Shown: in pieces, positions 6,155 through 21,783 of the stretch
How the letters are laid out: each line of letters opens with the position of its first letter
Position numbering within the stretch: the stretch's first letter is position 1
Assembly (NCBI GenBank): GCA_016699955.1
Contig: CP064993.1
Span: 150,001 to 182,000, forward strand
Direction: 5' to 3'
Source: Candidatus Saccharimonadota bacterium
GTDB taxonomy: Bacteria > Patescibacteriota > Saccharimonadia > Saccharimonadales > UBA4665
Length of the DNA stretch: 32,000 bases
The notes under the pieces: model-generated
What the model saw: only the letters and a program-made list of their open reading frames with translations
Databases searched by the model: none
What the model was told of the DNA's origin: nothing
Position numbers and translations under genes: made by a program

Positions 6155-6231
6155 GCGGGTGTAGCTCAGTTGTTTAGAGCGCGTCCTTGCCAAGGACGAG
6201 GCCAGGAGTTAGAGTCCCCTCACCCGCACCA
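6155..6231 (+). tRNA. tRNA-Gly (GCC), 77 nt with encoded CCA
   Basis: GCGGGTG TA GCTC AGTTGTTTA GAGC G CGTCC TTGCCAA GGACG AGGCC AGGAG TTAGAGT CCCCT CACCCGC A CCA. All four arms are present and the anticodon is GCC. The T-stem has one A.C mismatch, and the T-loop reads TTAGAGT instead of TTCGAGT. Confidence 0.8.
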
Positions 6232-6543
6232 AATATCTGAATTATGAGCCGAAAGGCTCTTTTTCTTTGCCTCAACAATGGTTTTAAAGGGGTCGTTTAG
6301 TATATAAGACAGCTTTTTGTCCTTTAGTTCAATGTTTGAAAGTACGTATTCTAGCAATTTCTGTCTTAGCCCCTCATCGCTCTCTTTAAACAGCTGGTCA
6401 GCCCGTTGAGCCAAGTCTAACAGGTAAGAAGCGGTTACTTGGAACTGCTTATTGTCGTTTGTTAGCAACTTTAGGCGGTCATTCAATTCCTGCTGTTTCT
6501 TTTCTAGCTCAGTTGCAATTTCATCGTGGAATGTCTGTGTAAT
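6220..6543 (-). pseudogene. C-terminal fragment of a recombinase-like gene (resembles the coiled-coil/C-terminal region of large serine recombinases), 5'-truncated
   Basis: The frame is open from 6543 with no plausible start: TQTFHDEIATELEKKQQELNDRLKLL...YLLDLAQRADQLFKESDEGLRQKLLEYVLSNIELKDKKLSYILNDPFKTIVEA...SDIWCG*. The last codons are the antisense of the tRNA-Gly 3' end and terminator. The frame is cut at 6543-6547 by the 96-nt repeat. The family call is from memory of the LF-x-S...LL-x2-VLSN-x2-L-x-(G/D)KKL-x-Y-x-L-x2-PF pattern. Confidence 0.4.
6246..6264 (+). terminator. Intrinsic terminator after tRNA-Gly
   Basis: GAGCC-GAAA-GGCTC followed by TTTTT. Confidence 0.5.
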
Positions 6544-6546
6544 TCA

Positions 6547-6642
6547 CCCGACCCGAAGCCGGTCGACCCTGGGAGACCGGTTGTCGTGACAGCGCATGAG
6601 CATCTGCGCTAGTCGACAAGGAGAGTCCCCTCACCCGCACCA
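6547..6642 (+). repeat. 96-nt partial copy of the 16579-16719 structured element, ending in the tRNA-Gly 3' 21-mer
   Basis: Identical to 16624-16719 except for 3 substitutions. Its last 21 nt (6622-6642) equal tRNA positions 6211-6231. Confidence 0.9.
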
Positions 6643-6653
6643 TACGCAATTTT

Positions 6654-6676
6654 GAGCCCGTTTAGGGCTCTTTTTT
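6654..6676 (+). terminator. Intrinsic terminator-like hairpin after the 96-nt repeat
   Basis: GAGCCC-GTTTA-GGGCTC followed by TTTTTT. Confidence 0.5.
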
Positions 6677-6803
6677 ATCTGTTAAAATCGGGTTTTAACA
6701 TCTCTAATTCCTAGCAAATGGAGACGAGACAGAAAAGCTAGAATGTAGGGCTATTAACAGAGAAGTCACTTGCAATATGGACAGGTTTTAACTCTTCAAT
6801 TTA

Positions 6804-6832
6804 TTGACATAAGTAATCATTAGTGCTATAAT
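6804..6832 (+). promoter_or_regulatory. Consensus sigma70-type promoter
   Basis: TTGACA (6804-6809), a 17-nt spacer and TATAAT (6827-6832). AGGAG lies 6 nt before the ATG at 6851. Confidence 0.55.
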
Positions 6833-6850
6833 TAAAAGATAGGAGATATT

Positions 6851-7207
6851 ATGACTTTAGATAAAGTTCACATTGTAGGTATGTCCGAAAATGGTAGCAC
6901 CTACTTAACTGTTGACGAATTTGAAGGTAAGGCAGTTAAGCCGCCCATTCAAGTAGTGCTTGAAGGTAAAGACGCTACTAGCGTTGCTGTTACCCAAGAC
7001 GCTCTCGCTGCTCGTTATGATGATGAAGAACTGTGTCAAATAGGTGAAGGTAGCTGGGTACTTGGACTCCAAAGAGTAATCGGCGAGATTGCTACTAATG
7101 GCAATCTAGAGTATGGCGCTACAAAGCCCTTGCATCCCAATCTCATTGATGCAGAAGTTGTAGCTTACGCAAAACTCCCTGCTTCCGTGTGTGAACTTAC
7201 GGCCTAG
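6851..7207 (+). CDS. Hypothetical protein (118 aa)
   Basis: ORF with a consensus promoter and Shine-Dalgarno sequence. No family was recognised. Confidence 0.6.
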   Translation: MTLDKVHIVGMSENGSTYLTVDEFEGKAVKPPIQVVLEGKDATSVAVTQDALAARYDDEELCQIGEGSWVLGLQRVIGEIATNGNLEYGATKPLHPNLIDAEVVAYAKLPASVCELTA

Positions 7208-7384
7208 TTGTTTAGTAATTTTCTAAGAAGTAACGTTTTACTTTCATAGCTAATAGCGCACCACTAAAATAACCGTATTCGTGGGTACGGATTGAACCAG
7301 AAGACAATAGCCCGAATGCTCAATGCTCACATGCGCATCTAGGGTCAGGGTTGTTGTATCAGCTAAAGAACGAGCAATTTTGAG

Positions 7385-7666
7385 CTACTTCCTAAAATCT
7401 AATAAATCCTCGGAGTCATTCCTTACTATTTTCTTTTTACGTGGGATCAACTTTGTGAAATAGGCGTAGGTTGATACTAGTACCTTCACGAATATTGCGA
7501 GTAGACAATAGATTGCAAGAAGGCCTAAGGCCGTGTTTGCGGTATCAATCCATGGTCCTTTAAAATTTTCTGTAATTATTGACCCGGCTAGGCCTATGGC
7601 AAAAACTGCAATAATCAAAACCCACCATGGAAGTAAGTTATACCAAGTAAGGCGATTATTTATCAT
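7385..7666 (-). CDS. Small membrane protein (93 aa, 2-3 TM helices)
   Basis: The hydrophobic segments LLPWWVLIIAVFAIGLAGSII and ALGLLAIYCLLAIFVKVLV are followed by a basic tail. The gene is divergent from the helicase gene. Confidence 0.5.
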   Translation of the reverse strand: MINNRLTWYNLLPWWVLIIAVFAIGLAGSIITENFKGPWIDTANTALGLLAIYCLLAIFVKVLVSTYAYFTKLIPRKKKIVRNDSEDLLDFRK

Positions 7667-7771
7667 GATAATATTATACCTCTCAATTATTCTTGTACAA
7701 TAATTCTTTTACTTAAGTCGTTGCGACGAAAGTTCTGATGTATAATTCGAGCAGAAACACCTTATCAATTT

Positions 7772-10700
7772 ATGGCAAAAATACCAATAACCATTAGTCA
7801 GCTAGCTAAATACGGACTTGATTATGTAAGTCTCATTTCAAGCAGTGCCTCAAGAAGTCGTCCAATTAAGACTGAACAGATGGACGCTGGGCTAGTATCT
7901 GCCCCAGACCTAATCTTCAAAGGAGAGACAGACAGTTTAACTATCAGCTTGGTTACATCGCTCGATAGACAGTTTGACCCAAATACGCTCGGTGAGGAAA
8001 AGAGCGACGAGCAACTACAGGCAGAACGTCGAGTTGAGCGTGATAGGGCGATATTTAATAGGTTCCAAGAAATCGACACGAAGATTAAGACCGACGAGTA
8101 CACGAAAAGGGTTGTATTTCAGACGGGCTTTATCTCATTTGAAGCAAAGCGTCTCAAGGAAAATGAGTTCAGCGATGATTATGAAAGTTATGAAGCACCA
8201 TTATTGCAGATTCCTGTAGCTGCAATAAACTTTAAATATACCAGTGACGGTGCAAATGTAATCATTGACTTGCCTGATAGCTATTTGGAAGTACTAACTG
8301 GCCCTCTTAAGAACTACTTGCCCCAGCAATATTTTGATAATGTCTTTAAATTTGTTGCCGATTCAGAAGCCGAAGGAAAGACAAGCCTTCCAGTGGAAGA
8401 TGATTTTATTGAAGATTTGTGGTCAGCAATCAGGGTGCAATTAGACCGAGTTGATGCCAAGGCGATATCAGAAAGCCCTGGTTTTGATACGAGTATAGTT
8501 GCCATTACAAACAAGACGAATCATTTCTTAGCCGAAGACTTAAGGGCCATTGCAACCCTAGAGGATGAAGACTTGCTAGAAACATCACTCGGTAGCTGGG
8601 TTTCAGACGAGGATATGGCAATTGAGCAAACCGTATCGGATGACGGCAGTACTGAGATATTCTTTCCTTTTGATTATGACAAGTACCAGCTCAAGGTGCT
8701 TGGGATAACTGCCAATAAGGCTGTTATCGTTGAGGGTCCTCCTGGTACTGGTAAATCTCAGACTATCTCGAACTTGCTAGTTCATTTAGCGGCTACTGGA
8801 AAAAGAGTATTGTTCGCTAGTCAAAAAGACCAAGCCATACGTGGCGTGAAGGATAAACTAAAAACTCTTGATGTGCCCTTTTTATTTGGTTATATTCCAG
8901 ACAAGACTTCGAAGTTGTATACAGCAGATGATGAGAAAGACAGTGCCGCCAATACTCTCATAGCGTTGAACCGAGAATTTCAAAAAGGCAAAGTCGGAGA
9001 CCTAAAAGAACCACTGGGCTTGCTTGTCGACCGTTCGAAGAATTTTGTAGAAAATATGAACATCGAACGTTCTCTTTATGCCCTGCACGAAGAGCGAAGA
9101 AGCCTTGGCTACTTAGATGCTTTCTATGATTATGGAATCAACTTAGAGTTTTATGGACAGTGTTTGGAATTTGAGAAAAACATTAGTGAGCTTAGTTCTA
9201 AAATTAAACAGTTTGAAGAGGCTCATAGTAAGTTTATAAAAATAGCCGACACTAAATTCAAGGACCTTAAAATAGACTATCAAGGTACGATTCCCTCTAC
9301 TGAGAGTATCTGCACATACTTCAAAGTAAATATGCCTGAGCGTTCTGGTTGGCTCGGCGGTAAGGTTAACGACATTAAGCTCCGAAGTGCGCTCAAGGAA
9401 CACTGTCGTGACATATTCCAAGAAATTTACGTAGAGTTTGAAAAGATATTATTCTCTGACAATACGAAGTCGGCTAAATTAAATATGCTAGATGGCGTAA
9501 AGGCATACTTCACATACTCCCTTGATAAAGAGACTCTATCCTATGTCTGCTCAGAGCTAGACAAACTCCTAGAGAGCAAAGATATGCCAGAGACAGTGTT
9601 GGCAAGCTTCAAAAAAGTTGTGAGTGAGCACGGTGGCGATAGCGAAGTATTTAAAGACCTTGATAGGTATAATGCAATCTCTGCTCAGATAGAAGAGGCG
9701 TCTCTTTATTCGGCCAACGAACTTAATCGTGAGATTAAGGATATTCGTAAGTTTTATAGGAAGAATGTCACAAACTATGTACGCAACCGAATATTGACAA
9801 GGGTTGGCGAGGCGAACAACAGCAAGGAACTTAGAGCTACGTTAGCCCAAGTTGCCAGAAGCCTAACCAAGAGCAAGAAAGCCAATAAGACATTTGATAG
9901 GTTGAAGCATAACGAGGACAACTTTAGTGCTATGTCAAAAGTAGTACCTATCTGGATGATGAGTCTGGATGACGTAAGCCGTATTGTGCCTCTAGAAATG
10001 AACGCTTTCGATTACGTTATTATCGACGAGGCTTCACAGTGTAACTTTGCATATGCGTTCCCAGCTATGTACCGTGCGGAACATACTATATTCTTTGGCG
10101 ATACGTTGCAGATGCGTGACGACAACATTATGTTCAAGTCAAATGACCAGCTTAGTGCTATAGCCAAAAAACATAAGATACCTGACGTATATCAGATTAA
10201 AGCCGAAGAAGACACTGTTAAGTCTGTGATGGACATAGCAAGCCTAAATGGTTTCAAGACTACCACTCTCAAATACCACTACCGTTCGCCTAAAGAGCTG
10301 ATTGGTTTTTCTAATACAGCGTTTTACGAGCCGATTGGTCGCAAGCTAGAGGCTGTTAATGATAATGTCGTCCCGTATAAAGACACTGGACGGGTCTTGC
10401 TTAACCATTTAGTTACTCCAAGTGATGACGAAGAAATAGGAAGCAAAACTAACCTTGCTGAGATACGAAGAATTCAGGAACTGGTTGAAGAGATTAAGAT
10501 CGACCCCGTTATTAAGGACAAGTCTATAGCTATATTGACATTCTTCAACGAGCAGGCGGAAGAGATACGTAATGTCATCAAAGATGAAGATATTAAAGTT
10601 GCAATTATTGACGGTATACAGGGAGATGAACGAGACATTGTAATTTACTCGTTTGTCATTAAAGACCCTAGTGATAAACGTCGGTATGTAAGCCGTACGG

Positions 10701-11635
10701 GCGAAGGCGGCGAAATAAACAAAGATATAGCTGCTGGACGAGTTAACGTGGCCTTTAGTCGTGCTCGGCTTCAGGTACACTGTGTAACCTCTCTTCCAAC
10801 AGAGCTGTGGCCTGACGGTATTTGGATTAAAAAGTATCTAGAGTATGTAGATAAAAATGGGGTACTATCCCGTCGACACAGTAAGTCTGAGCAACGTTTC
10901 GATTCTAATTTCGAAGAGCAGGTATTTAATTACCTATCTAGGGAATTGGGAGCAGATGAGTACACTGTGGAAACTCAAGCAGAATCTCTTGGCTTCAAGA
11001 TCGACCTAGTAGTTCATCATAAGGGCAAGAAGCTTGCAATTGAGTGTGATGGACCAACGCACTTCGAAGGCGGAGACGGTCAAGTTTATGTGCAGAACGA
11101 TTGGGAGCGTCAAGGTGCGTTAGAGGTCGCTGGATGGACCTTCTACCGCATATCATATTTCGACTGGGTTGATGACCAAGCAGAGGAAGAAAAGGCTCTA
11201 CTAGAGCATATAAAGCATTTCTTTGGCGAAGGACACTCTACAAGTAAGACGACTGTAGTTAAAGAACTTGAAAAAGAGACAGTCGCTCCTGAAGATGCTC
11301 CTAAAGACACTTACATAACAGACTTTTCTGATGAGCGTGTAGATAACGTAAGTCCAGTTAACGCTACACCAGCACCGACTGTTAATAAGGCTAAGACTTC
11401 AACCAAGAAAGAGTTTAGCGTTGGCGACCGAGGTGTTAATCAAGACGATTTTAGTAGGTATCTTCAGCCTCGTGCAAATGGGGTTATTAGAATGAGATAT
11501 CAAAGCGCTCGTGCTGGGAGTGCTGCTTACTGGCGTGATATCAAGTTGGTTAAATATGATGATACTTACCTATACGCTGAGGGCAACGACTACCCAATAA
11601 AATACCGTCGTGACCGTGTCATAGAGTTTAACTAG
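7772..11635 (+). CDS. SF1 (Upf1/Dna2-like, AAA_11/AAA_12) helicase with a DUF4011-like N-terminus, a DUF559/Vsr-like (MTES_1575-type) endonuclease domain and a WYL-like C-terminal domain
   Basis: Walker A is VEGPPGTGKSQT (nt about 8735-8758) and Walker B is YVIIDEASQC (about 10010-10040). Other helicase motifs are FFGDTLQM, LKYHYRS, IDGIQGDERDIVIYS and RVNVAFSRAR. The nuclease core is KIDLVVHHKGKKLAIECDGPTHF...GWTFYRISYFDW (about 10898-11170). The tail is IRMRYQSARAGSAAYWRDIKLVKYDDTYLYAEGNDYPIKYRRDRVIEF (about 11484-11632). Confidence 0.85.
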   Translation: MAKIPITISQLAKYGLDYVSLISSSASRSRPIKTEQMDAGLVSAPDLIFKGETDSLTISLVTSLDRQFDPNTLGEEKSDEQLQAERRVERDRAIFNRFQEIDTKIKTDEYTKRVVFQTGFISFEAKRLKENEFSDDYESYEAPLLQIPVAAINFKYTSDGANVIIDLPDSYLEVLTGPLKNYLPQQYFDNVFKFVADSEAEGKTSLPVEDDFIEDLWSAIRVQLDRVDAKAISESPGFDTSIVAITNKTNHFLAEDLRAIATLEDEDLLETSLGSWVSDEDMAIEQTVSDDGSTEIFFPFDYDKYQLKVLGITANKAVIVEGPPGTGKSQTISNLLVHLAATGKRVLFASQKDQAIRGVKDKLKTLDVPFLFGYIPDKTSKLYTADDEKDSAANTLIALNREFQKGKVGDLKEPLGLLVDRSKNFVENMNIERSLYALHEERRSLGYLDAFYDYGINLEFYGQCLEFEKNISELSSKIKQFEEAHSKFIKIADTKFKDLKIDYQGTIPSTESICTYFKVNMPERSGWLGGKVNDIKLRSALKEHCRDIFQEIYVEFEKILFSDNTKSAKLNMLDGVKAYFTYSLDKETLSYVCSELDKLLESKDMPETVLASFKKVVSEHGGDSEVFKDLDRYNAISAQIEEASLYSANELNREIKDIRKFYRKNVTNYVRNRILTRVGEANNSKELRATLAQVARSLTKSKKANKTFDRLKHNEDNFSAMSKVVPIWMMSLDDVSRIVPLEMNAFDYVIIDEASQCNFAYAFPAMYRAEHTIFFGDTLQMRDDNIMFKSNDQLSAIAKKHKIPDVYQIKAEEDTVKSVMDIASLNGFKTTTLKYHYRSPKELIGFSNTAFYEPIGRKLEAVNDNVVPYKDTGRVLLNHLVTPSDDEEIGSKTNLAEIRRIQELVEEIKIDPVIKDKSIAILTFFNEQAEEIRNVIKDEDIKVAIIDGIQGDERDIVIYSFVIKDPSDKRRYVSRTGEGGEINKDIAAGRVNVAFSRARLQVHCVTSLPTELWPDGIWIKKYLEYVDKNGVLSRRHSKSEQRFDSNFEEQVFNYLSRELGADEYTVETQAESLGFKIDLVVHHKGKKLAIECDGPTHFEGGDGQVYVQNDWERQGALEVAGWTFYRISYFDWVDDQAEEEKALLEHIKHFFGEGHSTSKTTVVKELEKETVAPEDAPKDTYITDFSDERVDNVSPVNATPAPTVNKAKTSTKKEFSVGDRGVNQDDFSRYLQPRANGVIRMRYQSARAGSAAYWRDIKLVKYDDTYLYAEGNDYPIKYRRDRVIEFN

Positions 11636-11644
11636 AATTTTACG

Positions 11645-12721
11645 TTAACTCTCTTGCAATTCTCTCAGTCTAGTAATCACGTAAAGCGATATTTCAATTG
11701 TCATATTTTTGGCAATTCGAGCATCTTCACGTCTAGATTTAATTCTGTGCGTACCATCATTGGACAGAAAGTGTCGATGAGACATGAGTAAGTCGGCCAT
11801 ATCCGTAGACAGAAGTCTTTTTTCTTTAAAGAACTTTGCTGCCTTCTCTGCATCCTTGCCGTCAATTTTTGTTGCTGGGTCTATAGACTTAGCAACTTGT
11901 TCGTAAAATCTTTCAGTGAAAGCACGTATTGCAGACATACAGTCTCTGTACTTCATAGGTGTATTAGCTTGCTCCACTAAATCAGATATGTGTCGCAAGG
12001 ATTCGCTCAGGTCCAAAGGAAAGCCAATACTTTCGATTTGTTCGACAACTCGTGCCTCGTCGGCATTCAACTCTGGGTTAAAGGCGGTGTCAATCTGACG
12101 AGCAAAATCACGAGTTAGCATTTCGTTAGTAGTAATGTAGAGCCTTCTTAAGGCCTTAGTAACATCTGTGTACAGACTACTGTATTCGTCAGCATCTTGA
12201 CCTAACTTAGACCTGCTTTGCATATAGTCGTCTGCGTAGTCCAGTAACCTTTCCGTGATATCAGAACCAAAAATATCTGGACGATGTCTTAGTGCCTGAA
12301 TAATGCAAAGGATGCTTTTTACGCAGGCACCATTATTGTTATATCCCACAAGGGTTTTGCATATATGGTCTAAGAGAATACCTGTGTTGCCCGTGTGCAC
12401 AAAATACAATGTAACAGCGTCAACTATACCGTCCGAGCCATTATTTTCTATGTACGACAGTAATAGTTGCTCAAATTCTTTTAACTCTCTGGCTGAAAGC
12501 TGCTGGGAAAGTTTTATTAACAATCCAGAGTGTTGATTGTTGAGCTGCCAGTCCTCTGGATTGTCGTCAATAAGACCTTTTATAGTACTGTCATCCAGTG
12601 GATAGCGTCCAGCATCTTCGGTAAGTGTATAGTTACTGACTTTGTTATCGCTGGCCTTTATGGCAGCGTTAGTCAGCAGCAGCTTAATCTTTTTTTTCAG
12701 TTTGTCGTCCATTGTTAACAT
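11645..12721 (-). CDS. Hypothetical protein with a DUF4145/HEPN-like C-terminal helical domain
   Basis: The preferred start is the ATG at 12721 (MLTMDDKLKKK); the TTG at 12784 is unlikely. The C-terminus AIRAFTERFYEQVAK...FFKEKRLLSTDMADLLMSHRHFLSNDGTHRIKSRREDARIAKNMTIEISLYVITRL resembles the DUF4145/Abi_C pattern (L-x-R-x2-(G)N-x3-H ... A ... helix). This is a weak, motif-level call only. Confidence 0.55.
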   Translation of the reverse strand: MLTMDDKLKKKIKLLLTNAAIKASDNKVSNYTLTEDAGRYPLDDSTIKGLIDDNPEDWQLNNQHSGLLIKLSQQLSARELKEFEQLLLSYIENNGSDGIVDAVTLYFVHTGNTGILLDHICKTLVGYNNNGACVKSILCIIQALRHRPDIFGSDITERLLDYADDYMQSRSKLGQDADEYSSLYTDVTKALRRLYITTNEMLTRDFARQIDTAFNPELNADEARVVEQIESIGFPLDLSESLRHISDLVEQANTPMKYRDCMSAIRAFTERFYEQVAKSIDPATKIDGKDAEKAAKFFKEKRLLSTDMADLLMSHRHFLSNDGTHRIKSRREDARIAKNMTIEISLYVITRLRELQES

Positions 12722-13117
12722 CTTAGCACTTGCGTGTATGTAAAAGAACTGATTGTGTTTATTGTCAAACAATATCCCCAACAAGCCTCTCCCAACAATC
12801 CTACCACTGTTAGTCGTTGGTCATTGTTGGGCTATTCTCAAAACATAGCTTTTTTATTTGTTGAGACATTTTTAGGTAGTTAGTGCGTTTACAACTACTC
12901 CTAGAAGTCTATGAGCTACGGGTACGGGGGTATATCAAGGCGTGTAAGTCTAGCTCGGCACAACCATACTCTTGTATTGGTTGTACGGTACGGCAAGTAT
13001 ATCTCTCCATCTTTGTATCTCTAACCTCAGTTGTGTGTAGTTATCCAAGCTAATTTGGTGTAAAAGTTTTTGGTCCTGCTGCACCATAGAAAATGTCGTT
13101 ACCACGTCTATACAAAA

Positions 13118-13146
13118 TTGACATAAGTTGTCGTAAGGTATATAAT
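13118..13146 (+). promoter_or_regulatory. Consensus sigma70-type promoter driving an apparently leaderless mRNA
   Basis: TTGACA (13118-13123), a 17-nt spacer and TATAAT (13141-13146). The ATG at 13154 is only 7 nt after the -10 box. Confidence 0.5.
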
Positions 13147-13153
13147 AATACTT

Positions 13154-13699
13154 ATGGCTGATACTTTTAGTGAAAGAATCGAAGCGTTACGTATTCAAAA
13201 GCGAGACGATTCGCGTGCACGCGCCCAAAAGCAAGTAAGTGCAGCAGCTATACAACTAGCAGAAAATGCACGTGTTGCTGAAGAGTCCAAGAAACTTATT
13301 GCAGACCTGCTAACTTTCCTAACGGCACGTGATGTGCCTACCGCACGCTTCGTTAGAACTGATTCAGAGCAAGTAATACTACATAGTAGAAATATTCTAA
13401 AACCATGGAACCCCCCCACATATGGTACGCGTGCGACTGAAAGAGATGTTGCGCGGGGGTGGTATATCTCAGACGTAGACGGCGAGCCAGGCGAGTGGGA
13501 TGTATCGTATCATCCATCCACACCCTATGGGCTTGATACCTTCGGACGCTTATATAGACTCAATGGAATTGCACCTGATAGATACATAGGTGATAAATAT
13601 GCAGTTATGGAAGAAATACTAGATCCTGAAATGCAAGTTCGAATTTTAAATGGCGAAGCAACTATAAACCGTTTAGAGGAACTCAGTAGAGGCAATTAA
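13154..13699 (+). CDS. Hypothetical protein (181 aa)
   Basis: ORF directly behind a consensus promoter. No family was recognised. Confidence 0.6.
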   Translation: MADTFSERIEALRIQKRDDSRARAQKQVSAAAIQLAENARVAEESKKLIADLLTFLTARDVPTARFVRTDSEQVILHSRNILKPWNPPTYGTRATERDVARGWYISDVDGEPGEWDVSYHPSTPYGLDTFGRLYRLNGIAPDRYIGDKYAVMEEILDPEMQVRILNGEATINRLEELSRGN

Positions 13700-13753
13700 A
13701 AACTGGCCACATAGCTAAAGAATCATCACCAAGGGTGGAAAACTCTACGTAAT

Positions 13754-13867
13754 CTACGCAGTTAGGTCGCCTGATAAATTAAATATCTCAACAAGATTAT
13801 TTAGCTTTTGGTCATCAACTTTCTGTGTTGCGGATGTTTGTAATACGTCAACTATGGTGCACCAATT
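13754..13867 (-). repeat. Conserved junction module, copy C: minus-strand coding-like remnant ending at a GCACCA core
   Basis: The minus frame reads NWCTIVDVLQTSATQKVDDQKLNNLVEIFNLSGDLTA*. It is homologous to 14747-14863. The GCACCA core is at 13859-13864. Confidence 0.6.
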
Positions 13868-13907
13868 AGACCCAAACGATTTTGAAACAGTATAGTTTCT
13901 AACATTT

Positions 13908-13929
13908 GAGCCTTTTGAAGGCTCTTTTT
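13908..13929 (+). terminator. Intrinsic terminator-like hairpin
   Basis: GAGCC-TTTTGAA-GGCTC followed by TTTTT. Confidence 0.45.
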
Positions 13930-13943
13930 GTTATGATTGGTTT

Positions 13944-14750
13944 ATGAAAAACGCTTCAAGCGGCGACATCCTTAGCTATAACCAATATGCAGAGATTGAG
14001 AAACAAGGCTTTACTACACCTTATATTGTAGAATTACAGCGTGAGGGTCAAAATCTGCTTTTCTATGGCTCAGAGCATACGAATAATCCTGAGCACCCTC
14101 AGTTCCAAGATGTTGAAGAGCGATGGAAAGCATTTGTCGCAAATTCAGAAAAACCAATCGCACTTGTTGAGGGTCGTTTTGATGAAGTGTCTCAAGATGA
14201 GTCAAAAGATAGGACAAAATCTATTGTGGAAGGCGGCGAGGCACAGTTCGTAGTCCATCTTGCCCGTAAAGACGGAGTGGAAGTAGCTTCGCCAGAACCT
14301 GATAGAATCTGGGAAGCAAACGAACTTGCAAAAGAGTTTGGTAGAGACAATGTTGTTTTCTACTACTTTGTAAGACAAGTTGGCTGGTGGAATAGGTTTA
14401 CCGAAAAACCGGATGTTCAGGCAGAAGCAAACAAAATGCTTGGGCTAATGGAAAAAACCTACAATTGGCATGACGTTGATTTTAGCATTGAGCGAATGGC
14501 TGCTATCCACGAGGAGCTATTCGGTAAGCCATTGTCGTGGGATGATACGCAATGGGTCTATGAGATAACGACACCAACACCTCAAGATTATGTTACAAAC
14601 GAGTTAGCTCGCAGGTCAGGCGAGCTTAGAGACGAGTATATACTTGAGCAGATTATGAAATACTGGAAAGAGAGTAAAAGCTTGTTTATAGTCTTTGGTT
14701 CAGCACACGCTATAAGGCTTGAACCTGCACTTCGTAATCTAGCCGCCTAG
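13944..14750 (+). CDS. Tiki/ChaN/TraB-GumN superfamily-like protein
   Basis: The N-terminal NLLFYGSEHTNNPEHPQFQ...IALVEGRF and the C-terminal FIVFGSAHAIRLEP resemble the paired G-x-x-H motifs of this superfamily. This is a motif-level call. Confidence 0.5.
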   Translation: MKNASSGDILSYNQYAEIEKQGFTTPYIVELQREGQNLLFYGSEHTNNPEHPQFQDVEERWKAFVANSEKPIALVEGRFDEVSQDESKDRTKSIVEGGEAQFVVHLARKDGVEVASPEPDRIWEANELAKEFGRDNVVFYYFVRQVGWWNRFTEKPDVQAEANKMLGLMEKTYNWHDVDFSIERMAAIHEELFGKPLSWDDTQWVYEITTPTPQDYVTNELARRSGELRDEYILEQIMKYWKESKSLFIVFGSAHAIRLEPALRNLAA

Positions 14751-14863
14751 CTATCTAACAAACCGCCCGACAAGTTAAATACTTCAACTAGGTGCTTCAG
14801 CTTATAATCATTCACGACATCGATGGCTGATGTTTGAAATGCGTCAACTATCCTGCACCAAAT
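14747..14863 (-). repeat. Conserved junction module, copy B
   Basis: The minus frame reads IWCRIVDAFQTSAIDVVNDYKLKHLVEVFNLSGGLLDS*. The two peptides are clearly alignable, with shared blocks IVD, QTSA, KL and LVE-FNLSG. The DNA copies also align throughout with scattered substitutions. Confidence 0.6.
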
Positions 14864-14899
14864 GAGGACTTTCGGACACTTCGGTGTCCTTTTTCTTTG
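14855..14899 (+). repeat. 45-nt exact repeat: GCACCA core plus flank plus terminator (copy 1)
   Basis: gcaccaaatgaggactttcggacacttcggtgtcctttttctttg is identical to 16714-16758. It contains GGACAC-TTCG-GTGTCC followed by TTTTT. Confidence 0.9.
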
Positions 14900-15147
14900 G
14901 CGTTAATCCGTAAAGTTAGCTCTTAAGAAATACAAACTTTCCCCTAACTTATTGTACGAAGCAACGAGGCTAGTTTATCCAGGCGTAGCGCTTGGTTACA
15001 TGCCCGAACAAATCATTTAATGACTAGTAGAACTATAAATAACCCACCCAAGAGGCTGCTTGGTAAAAGCATAAACATATTTAAATTGTCAAAAAGCAAG
15101 TGCTATAATGTAGTGACATAACCGCTGGGCGGAAACGAGGAGGGTAC

Positions 15148-16449
15148 ATGTTCAAACGACTAGTAACTTTAAGCGGAGCGGCAGTGTCAGTAGCGGCACT
15201 GTTCGTAGCTTCGGCCGGCGCTATGCCGACTAACACGACGAAGATTATTACGGCGAATGATCTGGATAACACATCATCAAATCCGGCTGTTGTAGCGACA
15301 GACGGCTTGAACAAGTGGTTCATGTATAACGATACTACTGATACGATCGACAATACGCTTGGTAGTTTCGTGTATGGGCCTGCAACGCCGCCTCACGGAA
15401 ACGGTAGCGTAGCATTCACTCTCGGGGCAAGCCCGCTGGATCGTAAGAATATCGCTACCTACCAATTTGGCGGACAAGCATTGTCAACGCTCACGAAGTT
15501 GTCTTACACCGCCTACTCTCACAGTGGTGTTGCTGGCACTAACGAATCGCCATACCTGAATTTCAACGTTGATTTCACCGGCACTAGTACTACGTGGCAG
15601 AAGCGATTGGTTTATGTACCAAGCGCCAACATGGTTTCCGTGCCGCAAGACACTTGGAATACCTATGACGCTATTAGTAGTGGTAACGCATTATGGAACT
15701 GGTCGGGTTTTGCCGCTAATGGCAATAAATGGCCTGACGGCAATATAAACCAAAATCGAACCTGGAGCGACATTTTGACGGCATTTCCGAGCGCCCGAGT
15801 CTTACCTGGTGACTCCTGGCTTGGCGTTCGCGTGGGTGAACCTGGTCCTACGGGCTACACCGGCAACGTCGACTCATTCACGCTCGGCACTGCCAATAAA
15901 GTGACAACCTATGATTTCGAACCTACTAACTTACCTAACAATGAAAAAGACTGCCGTAATAATGGATGGAAAGCCTTCAACGCGCCAACATTCAGCAGCA
16001 AGAAAGCTTGTGAAAACTGGGTTGACGCTGCTGCTCACGGCAACATACGTATGAGTGGCCCCAGCCAGAAAATAAAGTTTAATGTCGCGAACACAAAAGA
16101 CAATGATCGTGATCACCATGATCGTGATGAACGCGGCCGTAAGAACACCGTAGAGTACTGGAACTTCGATTACCCGGGCGGCCTGCACTACAAGGCTGCG
16201 ATCACGTGCCAGAATGTCAACCCGTTGACTAACGATGCACGTTTCATGTTCCAGATCCCTGCTGGCCACCCAGGCCTCAGTGACCTGTATATAGTGGTCT
16301 ATGTCAAGGATGGCGGTAAGCACCAGCCTGCTCAGTATGGGCACGCTGCAACAGCTGACAAAAATACAGCTCAGCAGTGGTGTGAAACCGGCGTTGGCTT
16401 TGCGCCAGCCATGTACACGGTTACCAAGGGCCACGTAGAAGTAAACTAG
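15148..16449 (+). CDS. Secreted hypothetical protein (433 aa)
   Basis: GAGGAGG lies 5 nt upstream of the ATG. The N-terminal signal-like segment is MFKRLVTLSGAAVSVAALFVASAGA. No family was recognised. Confidence 0.7.
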   Translation: MFKRLVTLSGAAVSVAALFVASAGAMPTNTTKIITANDLDNTSSNPAVVATDGLNKWFMYNDTTDTIDNTLGSFVYGPATPPHGNGSVAFTLGASPLDRKNIATYQFGGQALSTLTKLSYTAYSHSGVAGTNESPYLNFNVDFTGTSTTWQKRLVYVPSANMVSVPQDTWNTYDAISSGNALWNWSGFAANGNKWPDGNINQNRTWSDILTAFPSARVLPGDSWLGVRVGEPGPTGYTGNVDSFTLGTANKVTTYDFEPTNLPNNEKDCRNNGWKAFNAPTFSSKKACENWVDAAAHGNIRMSGPSQKIKFNVANTKDNDRDHHDRDERGRKNTVEYWNFDYPGGLHYKAAITCQNVNPLTNDARFMFQIPAGHPGLSDLYIVVYVKDGGKHQPAQYGHAATADKNTAQQWCETGVGFAPAMYTVTKGHVEVN

Positions 16450-16549
16450 CACAAAACGTTCTAGATTGGCCGAAGATGGTGACTTCATTAAACGGAGTCA
16501 CCATTTTCATTGTGAGAGTCGTTGTGTTTTTGTGCTCCATGAAAAGAGT

Positions 16550-16578
16550 CTTGCCCGATTGGGCAGGGCTTTATTCTT
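16550..16578 (+). terminator. Terminator-like hairpin after the 15148 gene
   Basis: CTTGCCC-GATT-GGGCAGG (one G.U pair) followed by the T-rich GCTTTATTCTT. Confidence 0.4.
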
Positions 16579-16719
16579 GGTGCAGGGCTAGTAGGGACTC
16601 TAACGGCTTTGCCAGTGGCAAAGCCCGACCCGAAGCCGGTCGACCTTGGGAGACCGGTTGTCGTGACAGCGCATGAGCATCTGCGCTCGTCGACAAGGAG
16701 AGTCCCCCCACCCGCACCA
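16579..16719 (+). ncRNA. Unclassified GC-rich structured RNA-like element with a tRNA-Gly-like 3' terminus
   Basis: Closing helices are GGTGC(A)GGG/CCCGCACC and GGGACTCT (16594-16601)/AGAGTCCC (16699-16706). Internal hairpins are GGCTTTGCC-AGT-GGCAAAGCC, CCGGTC-N10-GACCGG and AGCGCA-N8-TGCGCT. It is visibly more GC-rich than its surroundings and is followed by a strong terminator at 16733-16753. No Rfam family was recognised. Confidence 0.35.
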
Positions 16720-16758
16720 AATGAGGACTTTCGGACACTTCGGTGTCCTTTTTCTTTG
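16714..16758 (+). repeat. 45-nt exact repeat: core plus flank plus terminator (copy 2)
   Basis: Identical to 14855-14899. Confidence 0.9.
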
Positions 16759-16812
16759 CCATGCGAAGTCATATCTCATCACTTCTTTTAATATCTGCCA
16801 CTGGTTTTCTTT

Positions 16813-17241
16813 ATGACAAATAATAATTCTCTTCAGGACCTTCTCGCGACACTGGATGATATCACATTAAAAGATAGCAAAATACTTCTTGAGATAATGC
16901 AGCGTATAAGCGCTGCCGAACCTAAAATATGGAATGAACATACTATAGGTTTTGGTACATATCACTACAAATACGACAGCGGGCGCGAAGGCGACAGTCA
17001 AATTCTTAGTTTTTACCCAAGAAAGGGTAGGATTACCGTTTACCTGATGGACGGTACGGCACGCTATTCCGTGCTACTGGATAAGCTGGGCGGTCACAGT
17101 CCTACTGGTTACTGCATCGTGATTAAACGACTTAGTGATATAGAATTACCTGTACTTGAGGAGATTTTGCAGCAGTCTTATGAGTACATCAAGTCAATGT
17201 CACAGAAGGGACCTATCAACAGAATATTATGGAAAAATTAA
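16813..17241 (+). CDS. DUF1801 (YdhG-like) domain protein
   Basis: KIWNEHTIGFGTYHYKYDSGREGDSQILSFYPRKGRITVYL is typical of DUF1801. Confidence 0.7.
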   Translation: MTNNNSLQDLLATLDDITLKDSKILLEIMQRISAAEPKIWNEHTIGFGTYHYKYDSGREGDSQILSFYPRKGRITVYLMDGTARYSVLLDKLGGHSPTGYCIVIKRLSDIELPVLEEILQQSYEYIKSMSQKGPINRILWKN

Positions 17242-17263
17242 AAATGAACATCGTGGAAGGTAA

Positions 17264-17428
17264 TTAGTAAATAATCTTTTCACAATTCTCCATTCCATTT
17301 TGGATCAGGACACCCATATTGGGCGCCGATAAACGACCGCCCTCAGTCAGCCATTCAAAAAGTTTAAGTAAATTCTCTGTAAAGGTGCGCCAAACAGGGA
17401 TAGCGGGACGCTTATTTGCCCTGTTATT
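17264..17428 (-). pseudogene. Start-less remnant resembling the C-terminal part of a class I methyltransferase
   Basis: The minus frame between stops reads NRANKRPAIPVWRTFTENLLKLFEWLTEGGRLSAPNMGVLIQNGMENCEKIIY*. A related remnant lies at 18193-18300. Confidence 0.3.
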
Positions 17429-17483
17429 TTATTATTAGCAGTGATTCAATATATAATGTGAAAATAACTAAGGAGTATCCGCT

Positions 17484-18125
17484 ATGGCAACAAAAAAAGA
17501 TAAGTATCCGGCCACTTTTGATATAGATTATCCGAAAAAACTTGACCGTCTGAGTACTTTTTTTCGTATCGTATGGAGTATCCCTGCGATAATCATCATT
17601 AGCATGCTGACAGCATCTGGTAGCGAGCGGCTCATGAACGAAGCGGGCCAGGAAGTTTCTACGGGCGGTGGTGGCATTGCGGCTGGACTGTTTTGTGCTA
17701 CTGCCCTGATGATTCTTTTCCGCCAGCGTTATCCACGATGGTGGTTTGATTTTGCGCTCGAACTAAACAGATATTCATCTAGAGTCGGTGCTTACATTCT
17801 CCTGCTAACTGATCGTTACCCTTCCACCGTTGAAAAGCAATCAGTCCAGTTGGACATAGAGTACCCAAATGTTGAGCGAGATCTTAATCGTTGGTTGCCA
17901 TTGGTAAAGTGGTTGCTAGCTATACCTCATTATTTTGTATTGTTCATTCTTGTAATTGCTGCCTCAGTAGCGACTGTCATTGGCTGGTTTAGCATACTCT
18001 TTACCGGTCAATACCCCAGGAGTTTATTTAACTTTGTGGTTGGGGTGGGCAGATGGGGTGTTCGAGTCACTGCTTATGCGTTTTTGCTAACAACCGATGA
18101 ATATCCACCGTTTAGGCTTCGATAA
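17484..18125 (+). CDS. DUF4389 domain membrane protein
   Basis: Duplicated modules ...LSTFFRIVWSIPAIIII...RYPRWWFDFALELNRYSSRVGAYILLLTDRYPS and ...LLAIPHYFVLFIL...GQYPRSLFNFVVGVGRWGVRVTAYAFLLTTDEYPPF. AAGGAG lies 8 nt upstream of the ATG. Confidence 0.8.
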   Translation: MATKKDKYPATFDIDYPKKLDRLSTFFRIVWSIPAIIIISMLTASGSERLMNEAGQEVSTGGGGIAAGLFCATALMILFRQRYPRWWFDFALELNRYSSRVGAYILLLTDRYPSTVEKQSVQLDIEYPNVERDLNRWLPLVKWLLAIPHYFVLFILVIAASVATVIGWFSILFTGQYPRSLFNFVVGVGRWGVRVTAYAFLLTTDEYPPFRLR

Positions 18126-18192
18126 CATCCGCTGAACCAGTAGATTGTCTGATAACCCAAAGATTTGATCAATATGTTGTAACTTCTTATAG

Positions 18193-18300
18193 CTATGTTC
18201 TATGTCGTCGATTATATCTAGGGGGTGACAGTAGGCTAAAAAGCCGACCACTCACCAGACATTCAAAAAGTTTATAACTCTGCACCAATAGGACTGTCAG
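18193..18300 (-). pseudogene. Second start-less methyltransferase-like remnant
   Basis: The minus frame reads LTVLLVQSYKLFECLVSGGRLFSLLSPP.... It shares KLFE-x-L-x2-GGRL with 17264-17428, and the DNA core cattcaaaaagttta is identical. Confidence 0.3.
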
Positions 18301-18426
18301 TTATTAAGCCTATTTTTGGGAAGAATTTTACAGACAAAAACCTGGGCAAAGGATAGAGTATAAAGAGCTTCAGGTGTTAAACCTATTAAGAGCACGTAAC
18401 TTTAACGAAAAAAAGGGGTAAATGAA

Positions 18427-18807
18427 ATGGCTAAATACATTGATGGATTTGTACTTGTAATACCTAAAGGCAAAGAAGCCGAATACCAGAAAATGGCAGA
18501 AGAAGGGCGTGATTCATGGATGAAGCATGGTGCACTTCAGTACTTTGAGTGCAGAGGCGAAGATCTTAAGCAGCAGGAAATGGGTGACCTAAAATCACGA
18601 GCTTTTCAGGAGATGGCTGGCGCTAACGGGGATGATAATGTCTGGTTTTCATTCATTGTTTTCGAATCAAAAGAGCACCGCGACGAAGTAAACAAAAAAG
18701 TTATGGACGAAATGAGCGAATTGTATAAGGATAAAACTGATTTTGAAATGCCGAACGATATGAAAAAAATGGCATACGGCGGATTTGAAGTGGTAGTTGA
18801 AGGTTAA
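18427..18807 (+). CDS. DUF1428 (YbaA-like) protein
   Basis: MAKYIDGFVLVIPKGKEAEYQKMAE...WFSFIVFESKEHRDEVNKKVM...MAYGGFEVVV is collinear with E. coli YbaA-type proteins. Confidence 0.8.
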   Translation: MAKYIDGFVLVIPKGKEAEYQKMAEEGRDSWMKHGALQYFECRGEDLKQQEMGDLKSRAFQEMAGANGDDNVWFSFIVFESKEHRDEVNKKVMDEMSELYKDKTDFEMPNDMKKMAYGGFEVVVEG

Positions 18808-18976
18808 AGGGCTTTTTTATTAGTCTGACTCTAGAGTCTTACCGCTGTCCAAAAGCAAAGGTAAAAATTGCCGGTGGCAGTTAGTTATCCACATTTCGTT
18901 AAGTGATGGTATATACTAGACAGGCGGTATAATAAAACAAGTTACGCATTAACAATCAATTTAAGAGGAGGCCGAC

Positions 18977-19168
18977 ATGGTTACAGGATACTGCGTTAAA
19001 TGTAAGGAAAAAGGCGTTGAATTGTCAGCACCAGAGATTGTCAAAACTAAAACAGGTGGTTTCATGGCCAAGGGCAAGCATGAAAAATGCGGAACTACAG
19101 TTTGCGCAATGATGTCTAAGGAAAATGCCGAAAAAGCAGTAGAAGCCGGCGCAAAAAAAGCCTACTAG
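18977..19168 (+). CDS. Small zinc-ribbon protein, DUF5679-like
   Basis: GYCVKCKEKGVEL...KGKHEKCGTTVC has paired CxxC-like motifs. AGAGGAGG lies 6 nt upstream of the ATG. Confidence 0.6.
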   Translation: MVTGYCVKCKEKGVELSAPEIVKTKTGGFMAKGKHEKCGTTVCAMMSKENAEKAVEAGAKKAY

Positions 19169-19207
19169 ACCTCAAGGCACGAAAATCTAATCAGTAACCG
19201 TATGCTG

Positions 19208-19247
19208 CCACACTATGAAAAACCAGTCCTTGTGGCTGGTTTTTTCA
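19208..19247 (+). repeat. Junction/terminator repeat (copy 1) related to the flank of the tRNA-derived minihelix
   Basis: ccacactatgaaaaaccagtccttgtggctggttttttca compared with 22981-23018 caccatgaaaagtccactccttgtggctggttttttca. It contains AACCAG-N9-CTGGTT followed by TTTTT. Confidence 0.75.
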
Positions 19248-19386
19248 CGGTCTATCTTGAACCCCTAGCTCCTGGCCGAATAAAATATTTATCACCAGGA
19301 GTAGCTCTTGCCCACATGGCTGGTCATTATTACAGTTACTCTGACCGACACCGTCCTTGCTGTCCGTTTTTGATATAGTTAAGTTT

Positions 19387-20025
19387 ATGAAAGAAACTCT
19401 AGGCATACTAGCCGTTATCGTTGGCTTCATCGGATATATCCCTTATTTCCGCACAATTTTTAGTGGAAAGACTAAGCCTCATGCATTCAGTTGGCTGGTG
19501 TGGGGGACTCTAACGGGTATTGCGTTTGTTAGCCAAGTTGCTGGCAATGGTGGGGCTGGGGCCTGGGTAACTGGCTTCACCGCGCTGATTAGCTTTACAA
19601 TATTTGGCCTTGCTCTGTTTAAGGGTGTTAAAGATTTTCCTCTTACTGACTGGCTGTGCCTCGCCGGAAGTATAATTGCTATTGCGTTGTGGGCACTCAC
19701 TAAGAATCCATTGATAGCAGTCGTGTTGATCACGATAATTGATTTCGTGGCATTCCTTCCTACAATTCGTAAGTCCTATTCTGAGCCGAACTCTGAACCT
19801 ATATTCACCTACTCGCTGAGCGGCCTCAAGTTCTTGATTGGGATCATAGCGCTCACTGAGCTGTCATGGCTAACAGTGTTATATCCCGCCTCATTAGTTA
19901 TGGCTAACGGAGGATTTGTGGTGATGTTGCTTATACGAAGAAATAAACTGGCTCAGGAGCAGTCATCTCTTGCGTTGAGTCCCCTCACCCGCTCCAAAGT
20001 GACACAACAGAGGACACATCGCTAA
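19387..20025 (+). CDS. Polytopic membrane protein (about 6 TM) whose 3' end runs into a tRNA-Gly 3'-end repeat
   Basis: The preferred start is the ATG at 19387 (MKETLGILAVIVGF...). The last codons ...SLALSPLTRSKVTQQRTHR* are encoded by the 19977-19996 repeat and its flank. Confidence 0.55.
   Translation: MKETLGILAVIVGFIGYIPYFRTIFSGKTKPHAFSWLVWGTLTGIAFVSQVAGNGGAGAWVTGFTALISFTIFGLALFKGVKDFPLTDWLCLAGSIIAIALWALTKNPLIAVVLITIIDFVAFLPTIRKSYSEPNSEPIFTYSLSGLKFLIGIIALTELSWLTVLYPASLVMANGGFVVMLLIRRNKLAQEQSSLALSPLTRSKVTQQRTHR
19977..19996 (+). repeat. Copy of the tRNA-Gly 3' end (19 of 20 nt)
   Basis: gagtcccctcacccgcTcca compared with tRNA 6212-6231 gagtcccctcacccgcAcca. Confidence 0.85.
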
Positions 20026-20076
20026 GGCGTGGCGTTTTTGACATAACCTTATAATTTCATCTGTTATTATACATTC

Positions 20077-20799
20077 ATGAAAGATAAAATTATCGTAATT
20101 ACTGGTGCAAGCGAAGGCCTGGGCAAAGCTGCTGCGGCTAAACTAGCCCAAGAGGGTGCAAAATTAGTTTTAGTTGCACGCAACGAGGAAAAGCTTAAGC
20201 AAGTGAGTGAACAGATGGGCGAAAATACTCGATATTACGTGTGTGATGTGGGTGTCCCCGCCCAAGTTAGGGAAGTAGCAAGCAAGATATTAGACGAGTA
20301 CGAGTCAATAGATATCCTTATTAACTGTGCTGGTATATGGACAGACGAAGAGCTGGAGAAGAACGATGCTGATCGACGCAAGAGAGTTCTCGAAGTAAAC
20401 ACACTCGGAACAATTGAGTTCATAAAAGCCTTTGAGCCATCACTAAGAGCCAACAACAAAGGCCATGTCTTGAATGTGATATCTACCTCAGGAAACTTTG
20501 ATACAAGCTCTGGCGACAATACGTTGTGGCAAACTTACGGCGCAAGTAAATGGGCACTGTCTGGGTTTACTCGCGCATTTAAAGATTCTCTTGAGGGAAC
20601 CAGGGTTAAAGTTACCGGCTTCTACCCTGGTGGCTTTGATAGTAACTTGTATGAAAATGCGAATGTTCCAGACGCACACAACCAACCGTGGATGATGAAA
20701 ACTGATGATGTGGCAGACGCGCTGATATTTTGTCTGACTCGACCAGACGATATGCTCGTTGAAAAGCTCATTGTTACGAAGTTCGGTGCCGATAGTTAG
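20077..20799 (+). CDS. Short-chain dehydrogenase/reductase (SDR) family oxidoreductase
   Basis: Carries VITGASEGLGKA (TGxxxGxG), NCAG and YGASKWAL (YxxxK). Confidence 0.85.
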   Translation: MKDKIIVITGASEGLGKAAAAKLAQEGAKLVLVARNEEKLKQVSEQMGENTRYYVCDVGVPAQVREVASKILDEYESIDILINCAGIWTDEELEKNDADRRKRVLEVNTLGTIEFIKAFEPSLRANNKGHVLNVISTSGNFDTSSGDNTLWQTYGASKWALSGFTRAFKDSLEGTRVKVTGFYPGGFDSNLYENANVPDAHNQPWMMKTDDVADALIFCLTRPDDMLVEKLIVTKFGADS

Positions 20800-21771: not shown

Positions 21772-21783
21772 GTGGAATGAATA

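Follow-up and report, generated by a model that had tools for sequence, protein, structure and literature searches.

ProA and Hhe are anti-phage proteins that have been filed as single-protein systems. Hhe joins a superfamily 1 (SF1) helicase to a C-terminal Vsr-type nuclease in one polypeptide, is reported to protect Escherichia coli from lambda, T3, T7 and PhiV-1, and to require residue E1731 of its Vsr domain (bioRxiv 10.1101/2022.06.16.496414). The genuine ProA, WP_064360768.1, is a DUF3320 protein of 1963 amino acids (aa) from a Klebsiella plasmid, scores 2224.9 bits on the profile NF058533 and has the domain order DUF4011, Walker A, insert, AAA_11/AAA_12, MTES_1575 and DUF3320 (residues 1820-1868). 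Our literature search found no paper on ProA or on PDC-S37, a further family matched below. Here we describe a 1287-aa helicase-nuclease resembling these proteins, encoded in the segment 6644-13867 of a 32,000-nucleotide stretch of a Candidatus Saccharimonadota bacterium (assembly GCA_016699955.1, contig CP064993.1, positions 150,001 to 182,000). We refer to this whole stretch as the window and number positions from its first letter.

The initial annotation of this DNA had proposed that the segment is a single multi-gene defence locus. The six genes and features it listed are all present at their coordinates, and the AT-rich character of the segment is real, with a GC content of 0.413 compared with 0.49 in either flank. 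We nevertheless favour another reading, which we consider probable though far from certain: the segment belongs to a mosaic defence-type island of independent modules at a tRNA-Gly hotspot, in which the helicase-nuclease acts alone and not as a member of one system. The defence and mobile DNA of Saccharibacteria and other bacteria of the Candidate Phyla Radiation (CPR) is poorly charted, and the window provides a worked example of how islands are assembled behind tRNA genes in such genomes.

The helicase-nuclease and its named relatives

The helicase gene and its parts are the following:

7772-11635, plus strand: 1287-aa helicase-nuclease, the sole gene of the segment that is conserved elsewhere
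7772-8704, plus strand: N-terminal region, aa 1-311; aa 128-382 align with ProA 494-743, overlapping the end of DUF4011
8705-10786, plus strand: SF1 Upf1-like core (AAA_11/AAA_12), from Pfam
8735-8758, plus strand: Walker A of the core, GPPGTGKS, aa 322-329
10025-10036, plus strand: Walker B of the core, DEAS, aa 752-755
10910-11212, plus strand: Vsr-type PD-(D/E)xK nuclease, REase_MTES_1575, aa 1047-1147, with the motif D..LAIECDG..H
11441-11629, plus strand: C-terminal helix and five-stranded Sm/SH3-like barrel, aa 1224-1286, predicted by AlphaFold2 (predicted local distance difference test, pLDDT, 84-94)

This protein had been described as a helicase-nuclease-WYL fusion. Pfam confirmed its first two parts, with AAA_12 at 1.5e-20 and AAA_11 at 1.3e-14, both exceeding the Pfam cut-offs, and the nuclease domain at 2.8e-19 (69.4 bits, for a cut-off of 38.2). 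The Walker A, Walker B and nuclease motifs are nearly invariant across 27 homologs, an insert of about 280 aa lies inside the helicase core between Walker A and Walker B, and the closest sequence matches in the PDB are IGHMBP2 and Sen1. The WYL part was not confirmed: the last 87 residues gave no Pfam match to WYL (PF13280) at E-values up to 10. After a disordered linker, the tail is predicted to form a barrel whose best Foldseek matches are Hfq/Sm and SH3 barrels (probability 0.99, TM score 0.6-0.7, E >0.05), with no WYL chain among the top 50. WYL domains have a Sm-like/SH3-like beta-barrel fold, and the modelled tail, as a candidate WYL domain, is compatible with it. At the other end of the protein, residues 1-310 gave no Pfam match to DUF4011 even at E-values up to 10; a remote DUF4011 homology of the N-terminus is possible through the BLASTP alignment of residues 128-382 with ProA.

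Among PADLOC profiles, the best match of the helicase was PDC-S37 (6.8e-72; query 539-1184 on model positions 733-1363 of 1550, or 41% of the model), Hhe reached 3.9e-30, and MkoA and MkoC were also matched. NCBIfam returned ProA at 4.9e-67 (226.5 bits) and Hhe at 3e-45 (154.2 bits), the latter match being limited to positions 1468-1722 of the 1797 in the Hhe profile. When aligned with ProA by BLASTP, the helicase forms two colinear blocks (128-382 and 664-1201) at 24-26% identity, with E-values of 1e-26 and 7e-16. Both are single large proteins, and they share the order of DUF4011 end, Walker A, long insert, AAA_11/AAA_12 and MTES_1575. The window protein is, however, 1287 and not 1963 aa long, lacks the first ~490 residues of ProA, has a shorter insert, gives no Pfam match to DUF4011, and carries the Sm/SH3-like barrel at its C-terminus in place of DUF3320, for which no match was found in it. 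With Hhe (NF042953) it shares the SF1 helicase and the C-terminal Vsr-type nuclease in one polypeptide, the match covering the C-terminal half of its helicase and the nuclease, whereas it is about 500 aa shorter, ends in another C-terminus, has no detected DUF4011, occurs only in Saccharibacteria and shows unusual conservation. Mokosh had been set aside in the initial annotation, rightly in our view: the window helicase has the Upf1-like core in common with MkoA and MkoC, and only this core matches them, while neither the protein nor its neighbours matched a phospholipase D (PLD) nuclease and there is no MkoB partner. Phage and plasmid collections contained only distant homologs, at 24-30% identity.

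Judged by these alignments, the helicase is a compact, divergent and colinear relative of ProA and Hhe. It is a variant of known ProA/Hhe-type enzymes, and a new multi-gene system is not supported. What it adds is a compact, lineage-wide version of the ProA/Hhe helicase-nuclease family; at 1287 aa it should be easier to study, and a natural barrel-less variant exists in the oral Nanosynbacter helicases (P0099, 1200 aa), which end ahead of the C-terminal barrel. In one homologous locus (L017, 10001-13505) the gene is split into open reading frames (ORFs) of 196 and 921 aa, and several members of the helicase cluster measure 678-917 aa and lie on long contigs. From the split copy in L017 and the truncated ones elsewhere, we conclude that the gene is dispensable.

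A conserved gene with changing neighbours

We gathered 22 loci with a helicase homolog (48-93% identity; loci are designated by L numbers) and searched every protein of the segment against all of them. All helicase-homolog loci belong to Saccharibacteria (TM7), the group of the window itself, whose 355- and 181-aa proteins show 100% identity to IPL85_00825 and IPL85_00830 from a metagenome-assembled genome of Candidatus Saccharibacteria. The 118-, 93-, 355/379-, 181- and 268-aa proteins gave zero tblastn matches at these 22 loci, even where the helicases are 92-93% identical. The idea of one multi-gene system is therefore contradicted by the co-occurrence test: no window neighbour, including the 118-, 93-, 181- and 358-aa genes (the last being the 355-aa gene below) for which the initial annotation had suggested a neighbourhood check, accompanies the helicase homologs, and the lack of any conserved association was a result that this annotation had itself listed as counting against its proposal. 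DNA similarity around the gene extends only over 7729-11654, that is, from at most ~40 bp before its start to ~20 bp past its stop, and the helicase has its own short conserved upstream region (7729-7771).

The helicase itself is under strong purifying selection. Its ratio of nonsynonymous to synonymous substitution rates (dN/dS) is 0.076, 0.040 and 0.026 against L020, L018 and L014 (dS 0.48, 0.99 and 2.6), synonymous sites being saturated in more distant pairs. Selection is also evident against L020, where, as in the window, no recombinase lies nearby.

Only one neighbour of the helicase recurs, a large serine recombinase (PF00239, 430-731 aa) located upstream and divergent in 10 of the 17 loci first examined, with its 3' end overlapping a tRNA gene for Pro, Trp or Gly. 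These recombinases are 20-35% identical to one another, while the adjacent helicases are 70-92% identical. The recombinase ORFs continue past a terminator hairpin and overlap the tRNA 3' end in antisense by 22-58 nt (L003 6328-8214, L005 4331-5980, L014 564-2310 and L018 7458-9088), so that the attachment junction falls within the coding sequence for the recombinase C-terminus. The 32-kb window holds neither a recombinase gene nor a pseudogene of one; of such a gene, the final ~20 codons alone can be recognised, at the junctions.

The genes directly downstream of the helicase vary at every locus and are often defence genes. Those found downstream of helicase homologs include:

IetS (1e-49) with IetA (8e-84)
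an AriA/GajA-like ATPase
a TIR protein
TPR-HEPN_LA2681 (1e-31), in L007
PDC-M36A (2e-45)
Mrr, as a weak match

In addition, a 50%-identical helicase homolog adjoins GmrSD and a type I restriction-modification (R-M) system. The homology of the helicase to ProA, Hhe and PDC-S37, together with such neighbours of its homologs (IetA/IetS, TIR, HEPN_LA2681, GmrSD and type I R-M, among others), bears out the defence-type content that had been proposed for the segment.

As a separate observation, the interval between murT/gatD and the RNase Y gene holds two different recombinase-bearing islands, one in L003 (RAAC3_TM7) and one in L021: the first carries the helicase with the TIR gene, and the second carries a Shedu nuclease, an AAA_15 ATPase and Mrr together with a homolog of the 355-aa protein described below. 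The interval may therefore be a common chromosomal hotspot in Saccharibacteria.

A tandem array behind tRNA-Gly

The structural features of the island that concern the segment are:

6155-6231, plus strand: tRNA-Gly(GCC), called by ARAGORN and found by Rfam (65.2 bits)
6232-6642, no strand: unit A, a 411-bp remnant with an 88-aa ORF fragment and a class-1 right end
6220-6486, minus strand: the 88-aa ORF fragment, which overlaps the tRNA 3' end and shares 70% identity with a 119-aa ORF that follows the helicase in L005
6547-6642, no strand: class-1 right end of 96 nt, 97% identical to 16624-16719 (10 kb away) and ending in the tRNA-Gly 3' end
7220-7263, no strand: probable internal junction, formed by a shortened version of the sequence ahead of the 22985 junction, ending in GCGCACCA with a hairpin thereafter
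12794-13092, no strand: conserved non-coding right end of the helicase unit, ending in TGCACCA at 13080-13086
13768-13865, no strand: class-2 right end, ending in GCACCA at 13859-13864 and 71% identical to 14764-14861 (repeat D4)

The segment had been taken for a single mobile unit bounded by junctions at 6642 and 13859-13864. Both junctions proved to be genuine: the left one closes a perfect repeat of the final 20 nt of tRNA-Gly(GCC) (6623-6642), and the right one is GCACCA followed by a terminator-like hairpin (13908-13924). Mobile DNA at a tRNA gene is thus present, but it does not form one unit, as the segment is composite, with internal junctions at 13086 and, probably, at ~7263. The 3' 20-mer of the tRNA occurs four times in the window with at most one mismatch (at 6212, 6623, 16700 and 19977; chance expectation 0), and a fifth, degenerate copy of the tRNA-Gly 3' end lies at 22960-22985. 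The tRNA gene is the anchor and integration target of the entire array.

The non-coding spacer of the helicase unit, including the 9-bp inverted repeat noted previously (CCCAACAAT at 12791-12799 and ATTGTTGGG at 12823-12831), coincides largely with a sequence that recurs in other genomes. This right end (12794-13092) is 79% identical over 303 bp to L018 and L019 and 80% identical over 149 bp to L001, and the flanking genes always differ. In L018 and L001 it closes an element of ~8.2 kb (7534-15706 and 7531-15835, respectively) with the order junction, hairpin, serine recombinase, two small genes, helicase, variable gene or genes, and right end; L014 (641-9946) has a similar junction 126 bp past the helicase. 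Since this sequence marks the end of the element in L018 and L001, the helicase unit of the window ends at 13086 and the 181-aa ORF forms a separate unit (13087-13864). In the same manner, the truncated right-end copy at 7220-7263 (repeat D7: 7220-7251 against 22898-22929, 91%) points to a separate unit for the 118-aa gene as well, probably an independent cassette spanning 6643-7263. Class-2-like sequence also occurs in L001 (7426-7531) and L015 (3-43), and the breakpoints between conserved and variable sequence coincide with junctions.

On a larger scale, a tandem array of at least eight units of 0.4-5.8 kb, mostly with one gene each, extends behind tRNA-Gly from 6155 to 22985. Its junctions, each consisting of (G)CACCA and a hairpin, lie at 6231, 6642, ~7263, 13086, 13864, 14860, 16719, 19996 and 22985, and its conserved right ends fall into four classes. 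Nothing else seen at the locus is as unusual as this array, in which most units hold a single gene. When metagenome contigs were scanned by exact pattern for further copies of the class-3 right end, the S. aalborgensis sequence already known was the only one recovered. Rfam, at the gathering threshold and at E-values up to 1, found only the tRNA and gave no match to the right ends, and single-sequence folds of the 96-nt and 150-nt ends had z-scores of -0.2 to -2.4 with no common structure, the 96-nt repeat doing barely better than shuffled sequence. We dropped an RNA reading of the right ends for want of an Rfam match and of a convincing fold, and because of the same two results we treat them as DNA sites. 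No direct repeats of tRNA 3' ends were found in the other loci; this fits the short crossover of a serine recombinase, and the limits of the other elements accordingly rest on the CACCA and hairpin junctions.

The array is reminiscent of composite islands of the staphylococcal cassette chromosome (SCC) type in its insertion at the 3' end of a conserved gene, its tandem units and its short repeated junctions; SCC-type islands and the related Saccharibacteria genomes also share a large serine recombinase at the target-proximal end and defence cargo. Published work on SCC describes tandem SCC-type cassettes as carrying defence genes. In contrast to those islands, the target in the window is a tRNA gene and not rlmH, most units are single-gene and without a recombinase, and there are several classes of right ends of 100-300 nt.

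The protein encoded convergently to the helicase

11645-12712, minus strand: 355-aa protein (IPL85_00825), all-alpha, convergent to the helicase

The convergent ORF measures 358 aa from its ATG (11645-12721), 355 aa from the NCBI start at 12712, and is longest when read from a TTG at 12784; 9 bp separate its stop from that of the helicase. A DUF4145/HEPN-like end had been ascribed to this protein. No Pfam profile, DUF4145 included, matched it, and neither did PADLOC, NCBIfam or PHROG; the HEPN likeness holds at the level of the predicted fold. The AlphaFold model, built with 34 homologs, is all-helical with a mean pLDDT of 90.3, and the C-terminal third (11648-12085) is HEPN-like. Against the PDB, Foldseek gave no significant E-value (>0.1), and the only high-probability local matches, to the C-terminal bundle, are HEPN domains and toxins (1wwp, 1ufb, 8yuf, 7bxo, 7ae8 and 8xeh; probability 0.75-0.98, TM score 0.47-0.63, target-normalised). 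Compared with HEPN toxins and RNases, the protein has an additional large N-terminal helical domain.

The family carries an invariant C-terminal motif, R313-x4-N318-x3-H322, together with E329, D330, R332 and N336. The HEPN-type motif we sought was R-x(4-6)-H, and the R and H of the 355-aa protein are eight residues apart, one residue more than the spacing in DUF4145. A weak similarity of residues 205-259 to the start of the nuclease domain of the helicase (E 0.008-0.2) was judged to be due to chance.

Thirty-eight relatives of the protein occur in Saccharibacteria and Patescibacteria, and the helicase is absent from all four neighbourhoods of the family that we inspected. There, the relatives adjoin genes for a Shedu nuclease, an AAA_15 ATPase, Mrr, MmeI-type and type I R-M, HEPN_LA2681, SLFN_AlbA_2, SocA and Zeta toxin. 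From the model and these surroundings, the 355-aa protein is probably a stand-alone defence or toxin module and is predicted, with moderate strength, to be a HEPN-type RNase or toxin. In the window it fills the variable slot downstream of the helicase in which other genomes hold other defence genes. The family is new and probably HEPN-like, and it is found consistently in defence islands.

Proposed mode of action and alternative readings

From the domain content and the published data on Hhe, we infer the following steps. The helicase-nuclease would form a self-contained transcription unit that needs no fixed partner. Its lineage-specific, partly DUF4011-like N-terminus and the optional Sm/SH3-like barrel may recognise or bind foreign nucleic acid, on which the Upf1-like SF1 motor would then translocate using ATP, and the Vsr-type PD-(D/E)xK domain would nick or cut it. 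Elements of this kind are normally moved by large serine recombinases inserting at the 3' end of a tRNA gene, and the copy in the window has lost its recombinase.

Several observations weigh against a mosaic island with a defence helicase acting alone. The helicase falls well below the curated cut-offs of its named relatives (226.5 against 1500 bits for ProA and 154.2 against 2000 bits for Hhe), and these matches span chiefly the generic helicase and nuclease parts. Only one in ten of the genes upstream of the helicase homologs has a PADLOC match, that one being a HEPN protein (Aga_HEPN / PD-Lambda-3_B) in L014. The HEPN label of the 355-aa protein depends on weak Foldseek E-values (>0.1), and the attempts to place it by profile (hhalign against HEPN_LA2681 and against the L014 HEPN protein, and a PDB profile search) all came back empty. 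The conservation of the helicase (70-93% identity, dN/dS 0.03-0.08) is far above that of usual defence genes. Such extreme sequence conservation combined with a complete turnover of the neighbourhood is odd for a defence gene, and it is the point that most needs explanation.

The main rival would account for it by making the helicase a core or anchor gene of the integrative elements, which would serve the replication, processing or maintenance of the excised element in the manner of the conserved Cch helicase that adjoins the ccr serine recombinases in staphylococcal SCC elements, the variable flanking genes being cargo. Besides the serine recombinase and the right end, the helicase alone recurs in the bounded elements of L001, L018 and L014, and it stays very strongly conserved as its flanks turn over; the variable, often defence-type genes next to it resemble the cargo hotspots of other mobile elements, and the repeat-bounded tandem arrays recall composite SCC islands. 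We nonetheless find this rival unlikely. The recombinases and helicases do not co-evolve, because their identities are so different (20-35% against 70-92%), and about half of the loci, among them the window, L020 and L015, have no recombinase within 10 kb although selection remains strong. Moreover, the named homologs of the helicase are anti-phage proteins, and to our knowledge the fusion of a Upf1-like SF1 helicase with a Vsr nuclease is not a replicative or relaxase architecture. A related proposal, which we regard as distinctly unlikely, makes the helicase unit a single cassette within a Saccharibacteria-specific, integron-like platform: a tRNA-anchored array in which unrelated large serine recombinases would insert or shuffle mostly single-gene cassettes, each with a right end of 100-300 nt that finishes in (G)CACCA and a hairpin, at least eight of them lying between 6232 and 22985 and the helicase being a recurrent, perhaps required, member. 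The array would be either integron-like in this sense or a decayed set of tandem islands.

Strong selection could also reflect a lineage-specific host function, for instance the processing of imported DNA or repair in small-genome epibionts, with the island location being incidental. A dN/dS of 0.03-0.08 across the whole 1287 aa would suit such a role, as would the presence of the gene in several complete or near-complete genomes of different Saccharibacteria groups; a distant homolog (L025) does lie among housekeeping genes, those for ribosomal proteins and RNase J, which likewise speaks against a defence role. A host gene would sit poorly, however, with a location that differs in each genome, typically next to recombinases, tRNA junctions or defence genes, with the split or truncated copies in some genomes, and with the absence of the C-terminal domain from the whole oral clade. 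We thus rate this explanation improbable, and less likely than a core gene of the elements. Still more improbable, to the point that we give it very little weight, is that the helicase works in this locus with its neighbours, namely an interchangeable HEPN effector (the 355-aa protein), a small membrane protein, or both. HEPN-type proteins of three unrelated families do adjoin the helicase, in the window, downstream in L007 and upstream in L014, and the two genes of the window are tightly packed, with 9 bp between convergent stops. Yet the helicase has no co-occurring family, the three HEPN proteins show no relationship to one another, a HEPN protein is lacking at most loci, homologs of the 355-aa protein exist without the helicase, and ProA and Hhe are regarded as systems of one protein; in addition, because the helicase and the 355-aa gene are convergent, they are not co-transcribed. 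A cluster of helicase, nuclease, HEPN and membrane-protein genes, however plausible it looks, can consist of independent cassettes lying side by side, which is how the mosaic-island reading takes the segment.

Remaining genes of the segment and minor observations

The other genes and their promoters are:

6804-6832, plus strand: sigma-70 consensus promoter of the 118-aa gene, a 12/12 match to TTGACA-17-TATAAT
6851-7207, plus strand: 118-aa ORF, a small unannotated family
7385-7666, minus strand: 93-aa ORF with two hydrophobic segments, divergent from the helicase
13118-13146, plus strand: second consensus promoter, a 12/12 match to TTGACA-17-TATAAT
13154-13699, plus strand: 181-aa ORF (IPL85_00830), a leaderless orphan in the separate unit 13087-13864

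Under the mosaic-island reading, and with the same degree of probability as that reading as a whole, the 118-, 93- and 181-aa genes are unrelated cargo or orphans. The perfect promoter reported ahead of the 118-aa gene matches the consensus at all twelve positions, and the gene is preceded by AGGAG at 6841-6845. Its product matched nothing in Pfam, PADLOC, NCBIfam or PHROG; its homologs fall into 12 clusters, and three of its homolog loci (L027-L029) lack the helicase. The 93-aa protein, noted previously as a 2-3-TM protein, has two hydrophobic segments and is encoded divergently from the helicase, and no homolog of it adjoins any of the helicase homologs at the 22 loci. The 181-aa gene is indeed leaderless, because its promoter ends 7 nt ahead of the ATG. 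Its product gave no family match in Pfam, PADLOC, NCBIfam or PHROG, and its sole match among 5.8 billion proteins is itself.

Some minor observations concern other units. In PADLOC, the 88-aa fragment of unit A weakly resembles the C-terminal end of a type I specificity subunit (E 9e-4). Further along the array, a 63-aa Cys-rich ORF (CxxC...C; 18977-19168) has 84% DNA identity to two copies in L014 (11726-11918 and 12983-13113) and is followed by a strong terminator (19218-19247). In L001 (S. aalborgensis), the unit after the helicase element encodes a 286-aa reverse transcriptase (RVT_1; 19096-19956) and is bounded by junctions with the same hairpin (15844-15860 and 21730-21746). Finally, both 12/12 promoters of the segment (6803-6832 and 13117-13146) carry a common extended sequence, ATTGACATAAGT, while the genes they drive are unrelated and lie in different units.

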